Virus record (IMG/VR): IMGVR_UViG_2778261180_000002
Coordinates: 1 to 42,016 of that record
DNA from: a virus
Lineage: Duplodnaviria; Heunggongvirae; Uroviricota; Caudoviricetes
Length of the DNA: 42,016 nucleotides
Reading direction: 5' to 3' (one strand)
The notes beneath the pieces were generated by a model, which ran no database searches, was not told the origin of the DNA, and was given only the letters and a program-made list of their open reading frames with translations. Shown one piece after another: positions 1-42,016 of this stretch. Position numbers and translations under genes: made by a program. Each line of letters starts with the position of its first letter. Within the stretch, counting starts at the first letter, position 1.

Positions 1-475
<475 letters not shown>

Positions 476-33759: not shown

Positions 33760-34512
33760 ATGTCATCAGCCTCACCGAAACTCATCACAGACCAGCTATT
33801 CGAAAGGTTATTCCCATCGCTTGAGCAGGGAGAGAATCTCTTGGGTGAGTTTGAAGTTTTTAGCATCATTCGTGATGCTAAAAAAATACCCGTAGAAGAT
33901 GAATCTCTTACTATTCAGGGCATGGGATGGATTGTTCTTGGGGATGTTGAGAAAGGTTCAGAATTATGTGAACGAGCCTTATCAATTAACTCATCGGAGT
34001 CAGCTATTTGGATAAATTATGCTGTAGCTCTTGGACAAAAAGGCCTGTACACCAAACAGCGGAACATTTTAAAGCGTGGAGCCGACATGCTTCTTCCCTC
34101 ATTGATGATGTTTGATTTTATCACATCCTCTTTTTGGGCTGATCATGAAGAGATGAAGCGAGTTAAAAAATTGTTTAAGAGCTTGGGTGATATTGAACTA
34201 AGCGATAAACAAAAAGGTGATTATATGGGTGCGGAGGTGATATACGACACGTTAGAAAAACTTCCTATATCTGAGAGGGGTAAATTGTCTGGCATGGCCG
34301 CTTTGGCAATGCAGATATTAGAAAGTAATGGTGTTAGAGCCAGAAATTGTGGGCAGTATGTATCCCCGGATGGAATGCTTTCATTTAATTATGACGTAAC
34401 GGGTGCTACACCAGATTTAATCGTAAAATTAAATGATGAGCTGGCCTCAAAAATAGTTGAGAATGACTTGTTTGATGCCGATTCTATAGTGCTATTTACT
34501 CCAGGGGGGTAA
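33760..34512 (+). CDS. hypothetical protein, first gene of AT-rich two-gene cargo module
   Basis: ATG 33760 with AAGGGAG 8 nt upstream (track start is a TTG at 33742). 250 aa, no recognisable domain. Visibly AT-rich relative to flanking tail genes. Confidence 0.6.
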   Translation: MSSASPKLITDQLFERLFPSLEQGENLLGEFEVFSIIRDAKKIPVEDESLTIQGMGWIVLGDVEKGSELCERALSINSSESAIWINYAVALGQKGLYTKQRNILKRGADMLLPSLMMFDFITSSFWADHEEMKRVKKLFKSLGDIELSDKQKGDYMGAEVIYDTLEKLPISERGKLSGMAALAMQILESNGVRARNCGQYVSPDGMLSFNYDVTGATPDLIVKLNDELASKIVENDLFDADSIVLFTPGG

Positions 34513-34513
34513 T

Positions 34514-34924
34514 GTGTCAATTGAAATATATGAATTCATAAAAATTGCCAAGAAAAATATTTCTGACGACTCTGGTGAGATTGGAGTAAGGACTGCGGTT
34601 AGTCGTGGTTATTATGCCATGTACCATGCTTGTTTAAGCCTTAGCGGTCCGGTACCAAGACAACATCCACTTAATGGCTCTTTTAAAGGCGGGACTCACT
34701 CACGCCTTGCCCAATACATGACTGAATGTTCAAAATTGATATCCTCTACAAATGATTTGGAAGTTCGCAAGCTAGGCGTAAAATTGAAGATGTATCATAA
34801 ATATCGCTGTGATGCTGATTATGAACTAAACAAAACTATTGATGGAAAGTATGCGGAAATTGTAATTGCAGAGGCTGAAAATATTGCTGAGAGTGTGCGA
34901 TTAGTTAGATCATCTGCTGCTTAG
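34514..34924 (+). CDS. HEPN-like domain protein, second gene of cargo module
   Basis: 136 aa from GTG 34514, 1 nt after the upstream TAA, with GGGGGG upstream. Motifs SRGYYAMYHACLSL and YRCDADYE resemble the classic HEPN (PF05168-type) pattern. Confidence 0.55.
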   Translation: MSIEIYEFIKIAKKNISDDSGEIGVRTAVSRGYYAMYHACLSLSGPVPRQHPLNGSFKGGTHSRLAQYMTECSKLISSTNDLEVRKLGVKLKMYHKYRCDADYELNKTIDGKYAEIVIAEAENIAESVRLVRSSAA

Positions 34925-34941
34925 TATCATTTAAATGAATG

Positions 34942-34966
34942 AACCCGCCATCCGGCGGGTTTTTTG
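34942..34966 (+). terminator. rho-independent terminator ending the cargo module
   Basis: Perfect 8-bp stem AACCCGCC/GGCGGGTT, loop ATCC, then TTTTTT. Followed directly by the ribosome-binding site of the next baseplate gene. Confidence 0.8.
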
Positions 34967-34984
34967 CTTTCTGGAGACATATGA

Positions 34985-35737
34985 ATGCCCGTTTCTTTAA
35001 GCGCTCAACTTGGTAGCAAAGAACAGGCCGATGTAAGACTTGCTGGCTCTGTCATGTCGGCGCTGCGTGTTTCTATGCCAGGCATCGTCCAGTCATTTGA
35101 TCCGGACACGGTAACAGTGGTTGTTCAACCTGCGATTAAAGGCTATGAGCCGGACTCAAATGGAATCAACCAGTCGACGACATTACCCTTGCTGGTGGAT
35201 GTGCCAGTGGTATTCCCGCGCGGCGGAGGCTGTACGTTGACTTTTCCGGTAAAAGCCGGTGATGAGTGTTTGGTGATTTTTGCCGATCGTTGTATTGATT
35301 TCTGGTGGCAGAGTGGCGGGATACAGGAGCCTGTTGATGACAGAATGCATGATTTATCGGATGCGTTTTGTATTGTCGGTCCCCAGTCGCAGGCTAGGAA
35401 GATTAGCGGTATTAATACCAGTGCCACACAGTTGCGTAGTGACGACGGCAGTACCTATTTTGAGCTTAATCCTGATACCAGGAAAATTAAAATTGTCGCT
35501 CCGGGGGGTCTTGATGTGGTTGCCCCCCTGGCTGATTTTTCTGAGAAAGTAACCATTCATGGCCTGTTAACCTGGATGGGTGGCATGGTGGGGTCTGTTG
35601 TTTCTGGTGTGGCTTCAAAAATCACTGGTGCTGTTGAGTTTTTGGGTAGCGTGAAGGCTAACGGCAAGCCAATCGATGATACGCACACTCATGGCGGTGT
35701 TCAGCGCGGTGGAAGCAATACCGACGGAGTAAACTGA
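34985..35737 (+). CDS. baseplate spike / assembly protein V-like
   Basis: 250 aa. GGAGA 7 nt upstream of ATG 34985. N-terminal region resembles Mu gp45/P2 gpV-type proteins as recalled. Confidence 0.65.
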   Translation: MPVSLSAQLGSKEQADVRLAGSVMSALRVSMPGIVQSFDPDTVTVVVQPAIKGYEPDSNGINQSTTLPLLVDVPVVFPRGGGCTLTFPVKAGDECLVIFADRCIDFWWQSGGIQEPVDDRMHDLSDAFCIVGPQSQARKISGINTSATQLRSDDGSTYFELNPDTRKIKIVAPGGLDVVAPLADFSEKVTIHGLLTWMGGMVGSVVSGVASKITGAVEFLGSVKANGKPIDDTHTHGGVQRGGSNTDGVN

Positions 35738-37966: not shown

Positions 37967-38676
37967 TGGCAAAAAATGACTTTAAAGCATTCGCAACGGG
38001 TAAAAATGCCAATGTTATGTCGCAGGAGGAATGGGAAGCGTTGCCTGCGCTTTTGTCTGGATTTACAGCAGGGAAAGCCTCCAGTGCGCAAGTCAATAAG
38101 GTTATTCGGCAGGCCAGCTTTATTGCTGCAGCTCTGGCCCAGTTTGTAAGCGATAAAACGCAACGGGATGTGCTTGATAATGGTGATCTGCCCGGTTTTG
38201 TTGAATTGCTGGGATCGGGGTTTGCTGTTGAATACCTGAGCCGCAAGAATCCGTTTGGTGATATCAAATCGGACGGCACGGTGAAAACGGCTCTCGAAAA
38301 CCTTGGTTTGGGAGAAGCGGCAAAACGGGATGTGGGAACAGGGGAAAATCAGATACCGGATATGGCTTCTTTTGCCAGTGGTGATGGATGGATGAAATTA
38401 CCCAACGGTAAAATCCTGCAATATGGTCGAGGTGCGGTTACGCCGACATTATCGACGCAAACAATGAGAATTACATTCAGCATCCCTTTCCCCAAAAAAG
38501 CGGACTGCGCCATGCTTACTCATTCTGGTGATGGCGGTGCGCCTTTAGGCGCTGGACGGGGATTCGTGATGACTGCAGAAGGTCCAACACTAACCGGTTT
38601 TAATTCCGCTTACAGAACTGCATCAACCAGCTCCACAGTATCGATGAATTACAGTTGGTGGGCTGTTGGTGAGTAA
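37966..38676 (+). CDS. tail fibre protein (constant N-terminus plus currently expressed variable C-terminus)
   Basis: ATG 37966 (TGATG overlap). Contains the left inversion site; shares the peptide LGLGE at the crossover with the inverted alternative cassette. Confidence 0.75.
38291..38316. other. left inversion crossover site (hix/gix-like) inside tail-fibre gene
   Basis: CTCTCGAAAACC-TT-GGTTTGGGAGAA matches the recalled hix consensus TTCTTGAAAACC-AA-GGTTTTTGATAA at about 19 of 24 half-site positions. 15-bp core TTGGTTTGGGAGAAG (38303-38317) is a perfect inverted repeat of 40202-40216. Confidence 0.7.
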
Positions 38677-38696
38677 TTTTATTCAGGGTGATTTAT

Positions 38697-39140
38697 ATGA
38701 ACGAATATGTTTATAGTGCAAGGCATAATGCTTTTTTCCCTGTGGATATGATTGATAAATATAAATCAGAGGGATGGGATTTATCAGATGCAAAGGAAGT
38801 AAATCAAAATATTATCAGTGAGTTTATGGCTGAACCGCCACAAGGAAAAATCCGTATTGCCGGAGATGATGGGCTGCCTGCGTGGGCAGATATTCCTCCA
38901 CCCACGCATGAAGAGCTTATTGAAATTACTGAATCAGAAAGACAGCTACTAATTAACCAGGCCAACGAATACATGAACAGTAAGCAATGGCCCGGTAAAG
39001 CCGCTATTGGTCGTCTGAAAGGTGAGGAACTGGCGCAATATAATTTGTGGCTGGATTATCTGGATGCACTGGAGCTGGTTGATACCTCCAGTGCGCCAGA
39101 TATTGAATGGCCTACGCCTCCGGCAGTTCAGGCCAGATGA
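38697..39140 (+). CDS. tail fibre assembly protein (Tfa)
   Basis: ATG 38697 (GTG 38688 alternative). C-terminal region typical of Tfa chaperones; follows the tail-fibre gene. Confidence 0.7.
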   Translation: MNEYVYSARHNAFFPVDMIDKYKSEGWDLSDAKEVNQNIISEFMAEPPQGKIRIAGDDGLPAWADIPPPTHEELIEITESERQLLINQANEYMNSKQWPGKAAIGRLKGEELAQYNLWLDYLDALELVDTSSAPDIEWPTPPAVQAR

Positions 39141-39714
39141 CATCCGGCGCGGTGCTGGTATCTGTTGCCGCCACCGCGTCAATGTAATCCAGCACAGCGT
39201 TAAGTCTGGTTGTTTCTGCCTGTGTCAGTTTACGTCCGGCCTGCAATTTCAGTTGAATCAGACTGATGGAAGCCATTGCAGCATCAATCAGTGACTGGCG
39301 CTGTGCTTCTGCTGCTTCTACTGCGGCGTTATGCTGTGCCTCAGTATCTGTCACCCATTTTTCACCATCCCATTTATCGTATGGCGTTAACGGGGCGATA
39401 GTGGTTGTATTTTCAGGGTAATCACCCGGAGCTGTGATTTCTTTTGATTCTCCCGTTTCGGTGTTATAGACAACTTCACCGCGATGGTCTGGCACATATT
39501 CCCATGAGTTAAAATCTACAGATCGGCAGATTGCATAACCAGCTTTGTATGTGCCAGGGGCATCTAAACAGGAATATGCAGGGATACCGACACCAACGGC
39601 AAGATATTCAGTTGATGTGGAAATATATTCCCGTGTTTCGCCATCATAGTTATAGACGGTAATATTCCCCGCCTTTGTAGCAATAAACTCGCTATTTAAT
39701 ACAGCGTTATCCAT
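39112..39714 (-). CDS. alternative tail fibre assembly protein, inverted orientation
   Basis: 200 aa on minus strand. C-terminal motif (LNAVLDYIDAVAATDTSTAPDVIWPELP) parallels the plus-strand Tfa (LWLDYLDALELVDTSSAPDIEWPTPP). Confidence 0.7.
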   Translation of the reverse strand: MDNAVLNSEFIATKAGNITVYNYDGETREYISTSTEYLAVGVGIPAYSCLDAPGTYKAGYAICRSVDFNSWEYVPDHRGEVVYNTETGESKEITAPGDYPENTTTIAPLTPYDKWDGEKWVTDTEAQHNAAVEAAEAQRQSLIDAAMASISLIQLKLQAGRKLTQAETTRLNAVLDYIDAVAATDTSTAPDVIWPELPEA

Positions 39715-40256
39715 TATGCAGCCCTCACGATATAGTTAAATGCAATATTCCGTGGACGGGTTTCATTTATCCCATATGCTGTTGTTCTCTGATTCCCGAC
39801 AAAATATCCATTTGGATTAGAAGATACAGAATAATCATCAAAATCAAGTGGGCTATCAGCACCCGGCGTCAGGCTTGCAATATATCCTCTTCCCATAACT
39901 TCTGATGCTGGTATTTCTTTTGTACGATAATCACTAACTCTGAAGAGCTGCCCTTGGTGGGTGTGTGATTCCACTCCTCCATTCTGAAGACTTAGCAAGG
40001 CACGTACAGCATCAATACCACGCCCGTCATCCCAGCCACGAATAAACTCACCACGTAAATCAGGCAATTTATTTGTCGGATAAGCCTTTGCCAGTTCCGG
40101 GTATTCTTCAGCAGAAAAAGCGGCACCATTGCATTTCAGCCAGCCTGTTGGCGGAGTGGCTGAAGGCCACGGAACAGGCACCCCAACCGGTAATGCAGAG
40201 CCTTCTCCCAAACCAACGTTTAAGAAAATGCAGAGATTACGGCTAACTGGCATCAT
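39714..40256 (-). CDS. alternative tail-fibre variable C-terminal cassette (silent in this orientation)
   Basis: Minus-strand ORF whose N-terminal part ([13 protein letters not shown]) matches the crossover peptide of the plus-strand fibre (NLGLGEAAK). It would fuse in frame to the constant region after inversion. Confidence 0.65.
40203..40228. other. right inversion crossover site (hix/gix-like)
   Basis: Reverse complement reads TTTTCTTAAACG-TT-GGTTTGGGAGAA, sharing the 15-bp core with the left site in inverted orientation. Confidence 0.7.
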
Positions 40257-40283
40257 CCCCGGTTTTTATTCAGGGGATCCATC

Positions 40284-40547
40284 ATGCTTATTGGCTATGT
40301 CCGCGTATCAACAAATGACCAGAATACAGAATTGCAGCGTAACGCGCTGGAGTGCGCAGGATGTGAACTGATTTTTGAAGATAAAATCAGCGGAACGAAA
40401 TCAGCCAGACCGGGATTGAAAAAAACTGCTCAGAACGCTATCAGAAGGAGATACGCTGGTTGTCTGGAAGCTGGACAGACTGGGGCGCAGTGTGCGGCAT
40501 CTTGTCGTGCTGGTGGAGGAGTTGCGCGAACGAGGTGTTAATTTTAG
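40284..40547 (+). pseudogene. pin: Pin/Gin/Hin-family serine DNA invertase, frameshifted and 3'-truncated
   Basis: N-terminus [22 protein letters not shown]...[20 protein letters not shown] matches Pin-type invertases as recalled. An A7 run at 40419-40425 shifts the frame; the shifted frame continues [40 protein letters not shown]. Similarity ends near 40547 where AT-rich DNA begins; about 60 percent of the gene is missing. Confidence 0.75.
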
Positions 40548-40603
40548 TAGTTATGTTATTACAGGTGGGGGATTTCTCCCCCTTATGCAGCTTTTCTCGT
40601 TAA

Positions 40604-41449
40604 CTATTGGCGAAGTGGCCATATTTTTCTGTTTTTTAAAAAACTATCTTCAACTATATAACTGCAACAATGTTCACTAAGGCCATAAAAACTAATTATT
40701 CCATATTTATGAGAAGCTATATCAGACAGTTCTGCTAATACTGTGGCAAGCCAACGAGCGATGCTAAGAGAATAGAATCTTCCCCACTTTTGAACAATGG
40801 TATTTTGTCCAGTACGGATGGAGGCTGATATAAGGTCTTGCATAATGTTGGTACTTTCATTCATATACATGACCGTTGTATACGGTGAAAGAGTGGCATT
40901 GATAAACCTAGCATTTTCTTCAACACGTCTTTGTTCAACTGTATAATAATAATGTTTTTCAAGGATACTCTCGGCTACTTCTCCCCACCATTTATTAATA
41001 GGTTCATTATTGGTTAAATTGGGGCTGCTTAATGAGGAGAAATTTGCGTAACGTCCCCGTCGGGCATCAGCAAAGGAATCTAAACATTCAAGTATTTTGT
41101 AGGTAATTTTATGTGTAGGACGTGAATATCTCAGAGATAGTTGCATTTTTTTAGAAATACTATCAACCTCGTTGGTTAATTCAATGAGCTTGTGTCCAAA
41201 TTTTCTTACAATATTCTCGTCAGGCATTTTTCCTTTGTGTTCAATGGCATAGTGTGCAACAAGTATTAGTTTAGCAAGTCTCTCAAAACCTACAGAAAGC
41301 CCAAAAAATGCTGTGTAATATTCACCTATTTTGTCTGCATAATTGGCTTTACCTATGGCTGTTGCCCCAGAACCAATGAGCTGTGTTACTAAAGATGCTT
41401 CTCGGCCCAGAGCGTGCCATGCTGGAATATCCCAGGGATTTTTATTCAC
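40604..41449 (-). CDS. hypothetical protein in AT-rich right-end cargo (candidate defence gene)
   Basis: 281-aa ORF from GTG 41449 with AAGGA-like site upstream. AT-rich. No recognised domain; possible Rx5H segment (RYSRPTH) but unverified. Confidence 0.55.
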   Translation of the reverse strand: MNKNPWDIPAWHALGREASLVTQLIGSGATAIGKANYADKIGEYYTAFFGLSVGFERLAKLILVAHYAIEHKGKMPDENIVRKFGHKLIELTNEVDSISKKMQLSLRYSRPTHKITYKILECLDSFADARRGRYANFSSLSSPNLTNNEPINKWWGEVAESILEKHYYYTVEQRRVEENARFINATLSPYTTVMYMNESTNIMQDLISASIRTGQNTIVQKWGRFYSLSIARWLATVLAELSDIASHKYGIISFYGLSEHCCSYIVEDSFLKNRKIWPLRQ

Positions 41450-41576
41450 TTTATTATTTTCCTTTGCTCATAAATTTAAATTGTTTGAGTATCTCATAAA
41501 ATATAAGGAGGTGGTTAAGGTTGTTGATCGCATATAATAGCTATTGAAAGTCAAGAACTCGGTTTTATGTTCTACC

Positions 41577-41617
41577 ACTAATTAATATATTGTGAGTCTG
41601 ACAATATATTAATTAGT
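41577..41617. repeat. perfect 17-bp inverted repeat with 7-bp spacer
   Basis: ACTAATTAATATATTGT-GAGTCTG-ACAATATATTAATTAGT, in the 300-bp gap between two minus-strand ORFs. Operator-like. Confidence 0.7.
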
Positions 41618-41749
41618 ATGATCAAACCAGCCATCAACTGATTCCTTGTATCTTTCAGAGTCTCCAGAACAAAAGCCTTAACGAATTCCTTATTTGTGAG
41701 TGCCTTACAAAAAGCCATTGTTGCAGGGAACGAGTATAAAACTCGCCAG

Positions 41750-42016
41750 CTACTGGAGCAGGCTACCTGATTGTCGATCGATTCCTGCGTCCATATAGTC
41801 GATGGTCTTCTGGAGCTCTTCGATTAGGGCAACAGCTTTTGCTCGAGAAATACATATTAGTTGATCCGGAAATTCTTGTAAGGGCCAGTTTGGTATACAG
41901 GCCATGTTATCAGTGAAGGATGCAGACAAGTAAACTTCATTGGTAACCAGAGAATAGCTTACCTCAAAATTGGTGAGTTCCGGCAAACTGCTAACGTTTG
42001 ACTCTTTTCTGCGCAT
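41750..42016 (-). CDS. hypothetical protein; start coincides with window edge so may be truncated
   Basis: 88-aa minus-strand ORF whose ATG is the last three bases of the window; could extend upstream beyond the window. Confidence 0.35.
   Translation of the reverse strand: MRRKESNVSSLPELTNFEVSYSLVTNEVYLSASFTDNMACIPNWPLQEFPDQLICISRAKAVALIEELQKTIDYMDAGIDRQSGSLLQ

Follow-up and report, generated by a model that had tools for sequence, protein, structure and literature searches.

PrrC is an independent defence embedded in a type I restriction-modification (R-M) operon, and the mcrA product of prophage e14 is a proven type IV restriction enzyme. PrrC is also a HEPN tRNA nuclease inhibited through protein-protein interaction (doi 10.64898/2026.02.22.705581) and the classic gene nearly confined to type I R-M systems (Payne et al., doi 10.1101/2024.01.29.577857). 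The same study nominated 145 PDC systems by their location within multi-gene defence operons, and experiments confirmed that such embedding predicts defence genes (Payne et al. 2024, doi 10.1101/2024.01.29.577857). TgvAB is likewise an independent defence embedded in an R-M operon (PMC11411939). HepS of the Salmonella prophage Gifsy-1, a single HEPN-domain abortive-infection protein, provides the precedent for one HEPN protein both sensing and executing (Nature 2026, PMC13043305). Here we analyze IMG/VR record IMGVR_UViG_2778261180_000002, a 42,016-nucleotide stretch (the window) that corresponds to a ~41.7-kb temperate Escherichia coli prophage integrated in yfhL, and in particular the AT-rich block near its right end, whose minus-strand gene encodes a protein of 281 amino acids (aa). 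Our comparisons indicate that this gene belongs to a widespread, horizontally mobile family absent from current annotation, and its genomic contexts and predicted fold make it a candidate anti-phage effector.

The preliminary description of this DNA had likened the layout to the end of e14, and that analogy is accurate. In E. coli K-12 the stfE/tfaE invertible segment is followed by pinE, mcrA and attR, the right attachment site; in the window, too, an invertible tail-fibre segment and a Pin-type invertase precede a cargo gene at the prophage end. The two differ in that e14 keeps an intact pinE, with an HNH nuclease encoded on the pinE strand as cargo, whereas the window's cargo gene is unrelated to it, is read from the opposite strand and has destroyed the invertase. 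The comparison with PrrC (EcoprrI, prrA-prrB-prrC-prrD) and RloC runs through the family rather than through the window: eight of the contexts in which we find homologues of the 281-aa protein occupy PrrC's position between hsdS and hsdR, and the predicted fold may resemble HEPN, the nuclease fold of the PrrC C-terminal domain. In contrast to PrrC and RloC, the 281-aa protein lacks an N-terminal ABC-ATPase domain (no P-loop family matched), and it matches none of the PADLOC PrrC models and has no Rx4-6H motif. Most family copies, including the solitary one in the window, are not beside any R-M system. HepS differs as well, since it carries the canonical HEPN catalytic His/Arg site, has no detectable sequence relation to the 281-aa protein and shows only modest structural similarity to it. 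DARNA (PD-T7-3) was considered and discarded: it is 456 aa long and carries the canonical RX4H motif, and the PADLOC collection, in which the PD-T systems from the same screen as DARNA are represented, gave no match.

The minus-strand ORF (open reading frame) for the 281-aa protein is present as previously described and is intact (Table 1), not only in the window but in 44 of 44 E. coli genomes that carry the block. Between two E. coli lineages the gene differs by four synonymous and no non-synonymous substitutions. A word-indexed search returned 486 relatives; the best 120 of these are mostly 279-283 aa long and 56-74% identical, and their genera include Enterobacter, Citrobacter, Serratia, Klebsiella, Vibrio, Marinobacter and Methylocella. 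An exhaustive profile search widened the family to 957 clusters at 50% identity, 690 of them with E <=1e-10, and nearly all of the proteins are single-domain and 265-290 aa in length. Among 34 homologues at 56-74% identity the mean column identity is 74%, and seven residues (E17, E56, K60, H86, Y134, W154 and R232) stay invariant down to 27% identity, with R57, R133, N136, E198 and D268 nearly so. Together, these comparisons indicate that the 281-aa ORF is a real, selected gene.

Searches of Pfam, NCBIfam, PHROGs and PADLOC (the last at E up to 1 against 5027 models) placed the 281-aa protein in no family, and we treat a single NCBIfam HdrC line at E 0.054 as noise. The same holds for 46 diverse family members, which gave no Pfam match and nothing meaningful in PADLOC. 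An internal duplication of the two halves was ruled out (hhalign probability 0.4%), and a literature search by phage name and by protein accession returned no papers. The family is thus a real gap in current annotation.

Comparison of loci across genera points to transfer of the gene as a unit. Between the Enterobacter, Serratia and Klebsiella contexts, DNA similarity is restricted to the ORF and 15-37 bp upstream of it, and the GC content of the ORF lies below that of its flanks in 12 of 13 loci. A species-level genome scan recovered 33 loci, among them ones from Mycobacterium, Nitrospinota, Gemmatimonadota, Binatia and Desulfovibrionaceae in addition to Gamma- and Alphaproteobacteria. A distant homologue of 273 aa is present in about 135 plasmid records from E. 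coli, Klebsiella and Salmonella, mostly conjugative. In the one plasmid examined, IncX1 plasmid pE001, this homologue (L025 3968-4789; 33% identity over residues 17-175; no Pfam or PADLOC match) is situated between the genes for a resolvase-type recombinase and a DinQ-like toxin. These observations suggest that the 281-aa gene moves on its own and that the family is horizontally mobile.

We examined 39 independent contexts of the homologues. In 11 of them the homologue lies inside a type I R-M operon, in the same orientation as its neighbors and tightly spaced: eight are between hsdS and hsdR, with frames that overlap or nearly abut (L019, L034, L041, L047, L051, L053, L054 and L056), and three follow directly after hsdR, in an Enterobacter island (L004-8), Pseudidiomarina (L015) and Bradyrhizobium (L043). 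The species-level scan contains eight R-M-embedded loci. Some of the Alphaproteobacterial operons hold a second embedded gene beside the homologue, namely one for a CAP12/Pycsar TIR-domain protein (Pfam E 5e-34) in L041 (5291-6028) and one for a 204-aa protein with a weak VRR-NUC match in L053 (7368-7982) and L054. Elsewhere, the Serratia homologue is located in the variable region of a P2-like prophage, between gpA and the portal gene and beside a PvuII R-M system, which corresponds to the P2-like defence hotspots (NAR 2026, PMC13586616), and the Klebsiella homologue lies at a prophage end. The Enterobacter island named above also contains an integrase and HNH, Vsr and DUF4917 genes. Roughly 70% of the contexts have no adjacent R-M system; the copies there mostly stand alone amid housekeeping genes, and Fic, RelE, reverse-transcriptase or PDC genes are occasional neighbors. 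The family therefore shows the kind of embedding by which PDC candidates were nominated, yet it matches no PADLOC v2.0.0 model, although PDC models match some neighboring genes, and so it is apparently not among the nominated candidates.

An AlphaFold2 model of the 281-aa protein, built with 34 homologues, is all-alpha, with a pLDDT (predicted local distance difference test) of 80.7 and a pTM (predicted template modelling score) of 0.80. The predicted fold appears HEPN-like, with a possible resemblance to the four-helix up-and-down bundle of solved HEPN domains. RNases of the HEPN superfamily cleave RNA independently of metal, usually as a dimer with a composite active site. In the model the invariant H86 is at the N-terminal end of helix 88-101, which a short connecting helix precedes; this position is topologically correct. 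Position 82 is basic, either K (23) or R (22), and forms a [K/R]-x3-H motif with H86. Only two of the 46 diverse members touched the PADLOC model CARF_HEPN_mCpol at E 0.014. The matches of two family profiles against the Protein Data Bank (PDB), to a coiled-coil lectin neck and a designed protein, had E values above 0.1 and were set aside.

On the basis of genomic context and fold, we propose with moderate confidence that the 281-aa protein is a candidate stand-alone anti-phage effector of the abortive-infection type. This proposal draws on the cargo slot that the gene occupies, its single-gene mobility and low GC content, the embedding of homologues at the PrrC position, the P2 hotspot, the HEPN-like fold and the invariant charged residues. 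The earlier suggestion of a defence or abortive-infection gene is thereby supported circumstantially, through context and fold, with the function itself at the level of a candidate. A putative RNase chemistry is a more tentative part of the proposal. The protein would be expressed in the lysogen and stay latent until infection, upon which it would damage RNA or another essential nucleic acid. The catalytic centre of the HEPN-like helical domain would be built on H86 together with [K/R]82, E56/R57/K60, E17, R133/Y134/N136 and R232, and the copies at the PrrC position in R-M operons would act as a back-up layer to restriction. A bolder version, to which we give little weight, is that the protein founds an unnamed single-gene effector family (~1000 clusters at 50% identity, from Proteobacteria to Mycobacterium) with a divergent HEPN-like fold and a [K/R]x3H centre; such a family would be an ATPase-less, minimal counterpart of PrrC that fires when phage anti-restriction proteins disable R-M, and that also acts solo in prophages, P2 hotspots and IncX plasmids.

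Several results weigh against a defence effector with a HEPN-like fold. The canonical HEPN Rx4-6H motif, which belongs where the last core helix begins, is absent, [K/R]-x3-H being its nearest equivalent; Pfam and PDB profile searches returned no HEPN family; and Foldseek against PDB and BFVD gave no match at E <=0.001. Because the family lacks a PDB or BFVD match, a profile link and the Rx4-6H motif, we describe its fold as HEPN-like and do not file it as a HEPN member. None of the 5027 PADLOC models, including the PDC candidates derived from R-M embedding, matched the protein. The immediate neighbors at the 24 species-scan loci without an adjacent type I R-M operon are mostly housekeeping genes, the E. 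coli prophage copy has no adjacent R-M partner, and the evidence for a promoter comprises weak consensus matches only. The domain and fold searches advocated in the preliminary description thus ended, for the 281-aa protein, in no family match and a HEPN-like model, and they assigned the 88-aa protein at the window edge to phrog_17793.

Type I modulators such as Ral and Lar are carried by phages, and the 281-aa protein could likewise be an accessory or modulator of type I R-M systems, acting in alleviation, assembly or regulation rather than as a defence in its own right. In that case the copy in the prophage would manipulate the resident type I system of the host, protecting phage DNA or tuning restriction. 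Type I R-M is indeed the sole recurrent partner of the family (11 of the 39 contexts, most of them with the homologue between hsdS and hsdR). Phage Fostie, one of the phages with a homologue of the 88-aa gene, has a gene annotated as Lar-like. However, about 70% of contexts have no R-M system next to the gene, many copies stand alone among housekeeping genes, and one is beside PvuII, a type II system. An enzyme would fit the invariant E, K, H, R and Y set and the HEPN-like fold better than an adaptor would, and the genes embedded at the hsdS/hsdR position, PrrC and TgvAB, are independent defences. We therefore consider a modulator role unlikely.

It appears similarly doubtful that the 281-aa gene is a selfish, toxin-like addiction gene or a moron with a role other than phage defence (stress tolerance or RNA metabolism, for example) which reaches defence loci because these are shared hotspots. 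Such a gene would account for the patchy distribution, the low GC content and the single-gene mobility, for the presence of the family in the maintenance region of IncX1 conjugative plasmids and for the Fic and RelE genes among the neighbors; in addition, the corresponding slot of Salmonella phage SEN34 holds a serotype-conversion acyltransferase. On the other hand, no conserved antitoxin gene adjoins the homologues, the interior of an hsdS-hsdR operon is not a general insertion hotspot, and the very strong conservation across phyla argues for a specific molecular activity.

Two secondary structures flank the 281-aa gene, both of them reported previously and both present (Table 1). The small GC hairpin, folded on the minus strand, has an energy of -14.6 kcal/mol (z -2.7) and occupies the expected terminator position for the 281-aa gene. 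No U-run follows the stem, and for want of a T-run the hairpin was missed by the terminator scan; placed between the cargo gene and the pin fragment, it may stop transcription weakly in both directions. The perfect 17-bp inverted repeat forms the core of a palindrome whose 20-nt arms are 95% complementary and leave a 7-nt loop once folded. Its folding energy is -19.8 kcal/mol (z -4.8), and none of 200 shuffled sequences was as stable; the palindrome is therefore non-random. The terminator scan called neither hairpin nor palindrome, and Rfam searches of 40200-42016 returned no family, the one miRNA line on the palindrome being spurious. The palindrome is restricted to the 44 E. coli genomes that carry the block, and so we excluded a mobile-element end or a repeated element.

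Next to the palindrome lies a feature that had escaped the preliminary description, a frameshifted remnant of a dinI-like gene with ~75% DNA identity to annotated DinI-like genes in ~675 E. coli records. Its reading runs through ...FVLETLKDT in one frame and then shifts to ESVDGWFDHTN and a stop codon, which falls inside a palindrome arm. With only ~40 C-terminal codons, broken by the frameshift, the remnant falls short of a full-length DinI-like ORF of ~80 aa; it also explains a 46-aa ORF at 41578-41718.

The preliminary description had proposed the inverted repeat as the operator of the 281-aa gene. The palindrome is 128-168 nt upstream of the start codon, is well above chance in strength, overlaps weak -35/-10-like hexamers on both strands and accompanies the gene in all 44 E. 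coli genomes. An operator or promoter element that regulates the gene is nevertheless improbable, and the comparison between genera does not support it: homologues in Enterobacter, Serratia and Klebsiella share only the ORF and the 15-37 bp upstream of it, so that the palindrome is not kept in front of them. Moreover, the palindrome begins where the dinI-like remnant has its stop codon, as 3'-end hairpins typically do, and the block encodes no candidate DNA-binding regulator. The palindrome may once have been the 3'-end hairpin of the ancestral dinI-like gene; an insulator, a recombination scar or an operator acting locally are the other readings considered. That the entire block is decaying junk, with a chance or dying ORF and with the palindrome and hairpin as recombination scars, would suit the debris in the slot (a truncated, frameshifted pin and the frameshifted dinI-like remnant), but for the ORF this view is effectively refuted by its intactness in all 44 genomes, by four synonymous against no non-synonymous differences and by hundreds of full-length homologues with invariant residues, and the remainder of the prophage looks complete.

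Table 1. Features of the window discussed in the text, with coordinates counted from its first nucleotide.
Feature	Position	Strand	Remarks
yfhL	1-261	minus	ORF; the window starts at the yfhL stop codon
Left att core, 18 bp, TTCACACATATCACAATT	214-231		Within the 5' end of yfhL; integrase-side prophage end
Invertible tail-fibre segment	38298-40221		20-nt inverted crossover sites at 38298-38317 and 40202-40221, 95% complementary
Pin-type serine invertase pseudogene	40284-40547	plus	Codons 1-87 of 184 kept; C-terminal half, including the DNA-binding domain, gone
AT-rich replacement block, 1.19 kb	40547-41734		36.4% GC; cargo that differs among related prophages
GC hairpin, 6 bp, GGGGGA/TCCCCC	40567-40582		22 nt downstream of the 281-aa gene stop
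281-aa cargo gene, WP_001039127.1	40604-41449	minus	GTG start; AAGGA ribosome-binding site
AT-rich palindrome	41577-41617		Arms 41577-41596 and 41598-41617; between the dinI-like remnant and the 281-aa gene
dinI-like remnant	41609-41727	minus	~40 C-terminal codons, frameshifted
88-aa gene, phrog_17793	41750-42016	minus	Complete; last prophage gene, ~210 nt from attR

Comparison with relatives shows that the block with the 281-aa gene is a cargo replacement. GC content drops from 0.495 in the prophage body to 0.364 over the block, which holds the GC hairpin, the intact 281-aa gene, the 17-20-bp AT palindrome and the frameshifted dinI-like remnant. In the prophage of E. coli O103:H2 12009, integrated at the same yfhL/yfhH site, homology to the window extends through pin to 40544 and returns at 41735. 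Between these breakpoints the O103:H2 prophage has the remainder of a full-length pinE (554 bp, itself frameshifted) and a different minus-strand gene, which encodes a 215-aa protein. It is these junctions, 40544/40547 on the left and 41735 on the right, set against a relative with full-length pinE and a different gene, that identify a replacement, as had been proposed when AT-rich DNA was seen to take the place of the 3' part of the invertase, and the comparison with pin-containing relatives bounds the insertion by 40544 and 41735. Nor is the block the native continuation in all relatives: 71 E. coli genomes have full-length pin and the 215-aa gene, and 44 have the window's block. When the 125 E. 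coli genomes that contain the 88-aa gene and the attR-side flank are compared with the window, similarity spans the whole block in 43, and in ~80 it breaks off at 41735 of the window, a point 15 nt beyond the 88-aa gene's stop codon.

The same slot holds other cargo elsewhere. The 215-aa alternative in E. coli O103:H2 12009 (L023 6310-6957; WP_001288820.1) matches nothing in Pfam or PADLOC and is a second candidate of unassigned family. Salmonella phage SEN34 has the baseplate and tail module in common with the prophage, and a homologue of the 88-aa gene adjoins its attP/int; its slot is filled by an O-acetyltransferase moron, confirmed as Acyl_transf_3. Strain GCEC19 (L060) has a prophage in which the invertase and the DinI-like gene immediately behind it are both intact. 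Because the contents vary between O103:H2, SEN34, GCEC19 and e14, we regard the stretch from the invertase to the prophage end as a cargo-swap slot; bounded by the invertible tail-fibre module on one side and the last backbone gene on the other, it is ~210 nt from attR.

Comparison of the window with vB_EcoM-611R5 further constrains how the junction arose. The 5' two-thirds of the pin fragment are ~85% identical between the two, whereas its last ~70 nt and the cargo are >99% identical, which places a mosaic boundary inside the invertase gene at ~40470. The block itself is 99.2-99.5% identical between lineages whose pin fragments are at 85%. A single junction event, with recombination inside pin afterwards, fits this pattern better than repeated insertions. 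In that one junction event the 3' 53% of pin and whatever lay after it would have been exchanged for the 1.19-kb AT-rich block. We also observed the 7-mer GAACGAG both at 40528-40534, 12 nt before the left junction, and at 41728-41734, exactly at the right junction; the pair may represent recombination microhomology or chance (roughly 5%).

The invertase gene bears two lesions. Residues 1-47 of K-12 PinE (184 aa) match 40284-40424 in frame 1 with 94% identity by tblastn, residues 46-87 match in frame 2, and the alignment ends after ...ELRERGVNF at ~40547, with no alignment of PinE past residue 87, in agreement with the abrupt end of Pin similarity noted previously. RefSeq labels the stretch 'recombinase family protein, incomplete, missing C-terminus'. 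The change of frame, a +1 shift overlooked in the preliminary description, is located at an A7 run (40421-40427). The vB_EcoM-611R5 copy, ~96% identical over the region and with the same truncation junction, has A6 and no frameshift, as do intact invertases, and so the A7 run is a second, later lesion in the window's lineage. A member of the Pin/Gin/Hin family comprises a catalytic domain and a C-terminal helix-turn-helix (~184 aa), and here only residues 1-87 are left, split by the frameshift. The sequence is a pseudogene from this family and not a working invertase.

The invertible segment upstream retains both crossover sites. Its 1.9-kb interior (38318-40201), where the annotation lists tail fibre and tail fibre assembly genes, encodes Tfa chaperones and alternative tips of the fibre, and its orientation is opposite to that in the O103:H2 12009 relative. 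Since no working invertase is left in cis, the segment would be frozen, or reliant on an invertase supplied in trans by another prophage.

The ends of the prophage are defined by two copies of an att core. The core TTCACACATATCACAATT has one exact match in the window (none in 100 shuffles), and a second copy is found 211-228 nt past the right window edge (L001 11027-11044), 86 nt from the end of yfhH; an element boundary beyond 42016, for which the preliminary description had suggested looking, is thus located, and the two copies together give the prophage length of ~41.7 kb. The position of the left core within the 5' end of yfhL implies that the phage integrates into this gene and supplies a replacement 5' end. 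In the annotation of the matching chromosome, the prophage sits between yfhL and yfhH and is that of a complete temperate phage: the modules for integrase, replication, lysis, head, tail, baseplate and tail fibre are all there. E. coli FDAARGOS_144 is 99.7% identical to the window over the 1.8 kb compared, and this 1.8-kb end region is present in 43 other complete E. coli genomes.

The minus-strand ORF that reaches the window edge had been counted with the cargo. It is present and complete, but it is conserved att-proximal phage backbone and not cargo, since it occurs in 125 E. coli genomes irrespective of which cargo they carry. The 88-aa protein matches phrog_17793 at E 9.5e-46, with residues 1-88 aligned to positions 1-88 of the 91 in the profile, and has no Pfam or NCBIfam match. 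The ORF begins at the window's last codon, an ATG; translation from a further in-frame ATG, 12 nt beyond the edge, would yield 92 aa. Homologues adjoin int/att in Salmonella phage SEN34 and phage Fostie and are also present in Stenotrophomonas and Yersinia phages. Of the overall interpretation first offered for this region, the replacement stands and a defence role is plausible, while the 88-aa ORF as cargo is wrong and the palindrome as operator is unsupported.

Two further observations concern the prophage and its relative. At approximately 34426-34998 (L001 3226-3798), among the baseplate genes, the prophage has a DUF2335 gene where vB_EcoM-611R5 has a different hypothetical gene of 170 aa (L002 301-813), and this position may be a second variable cargo slot. 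ON470588.1, 'Escherichia phage vB_EcoM-611R5', was deposited as a complete phage genome, and one of its ends (L002 8125-10378) holds the host genes yfhH, pgpC and tadA; this makes a prophage prediction that took in host flank likelier than a packaged genome.

For this group of phages, the stretch from pin to attR has accommodated at least three cargoes (the 281-aa gene, the 215-aa gene and the O-acetyltransferase) and could be mined for candidates. Turnover of cargo at the prophage end can, through loss of the cis invertase, stop the tail fibre from phase-varying and thereby lock in the host range of the phage. The 281-aa family is a good candidate, one uncharacterized family among many. If it is a defence effector, it would be a very widespread single-gene family that Pfam, NCBIfam, PHROGs and PADLOC have all missed. 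The recurrence of homologues between hsdS and hsdR makes it practicable to test whether type I R-M operons carry guard effectors beyond PrrC.

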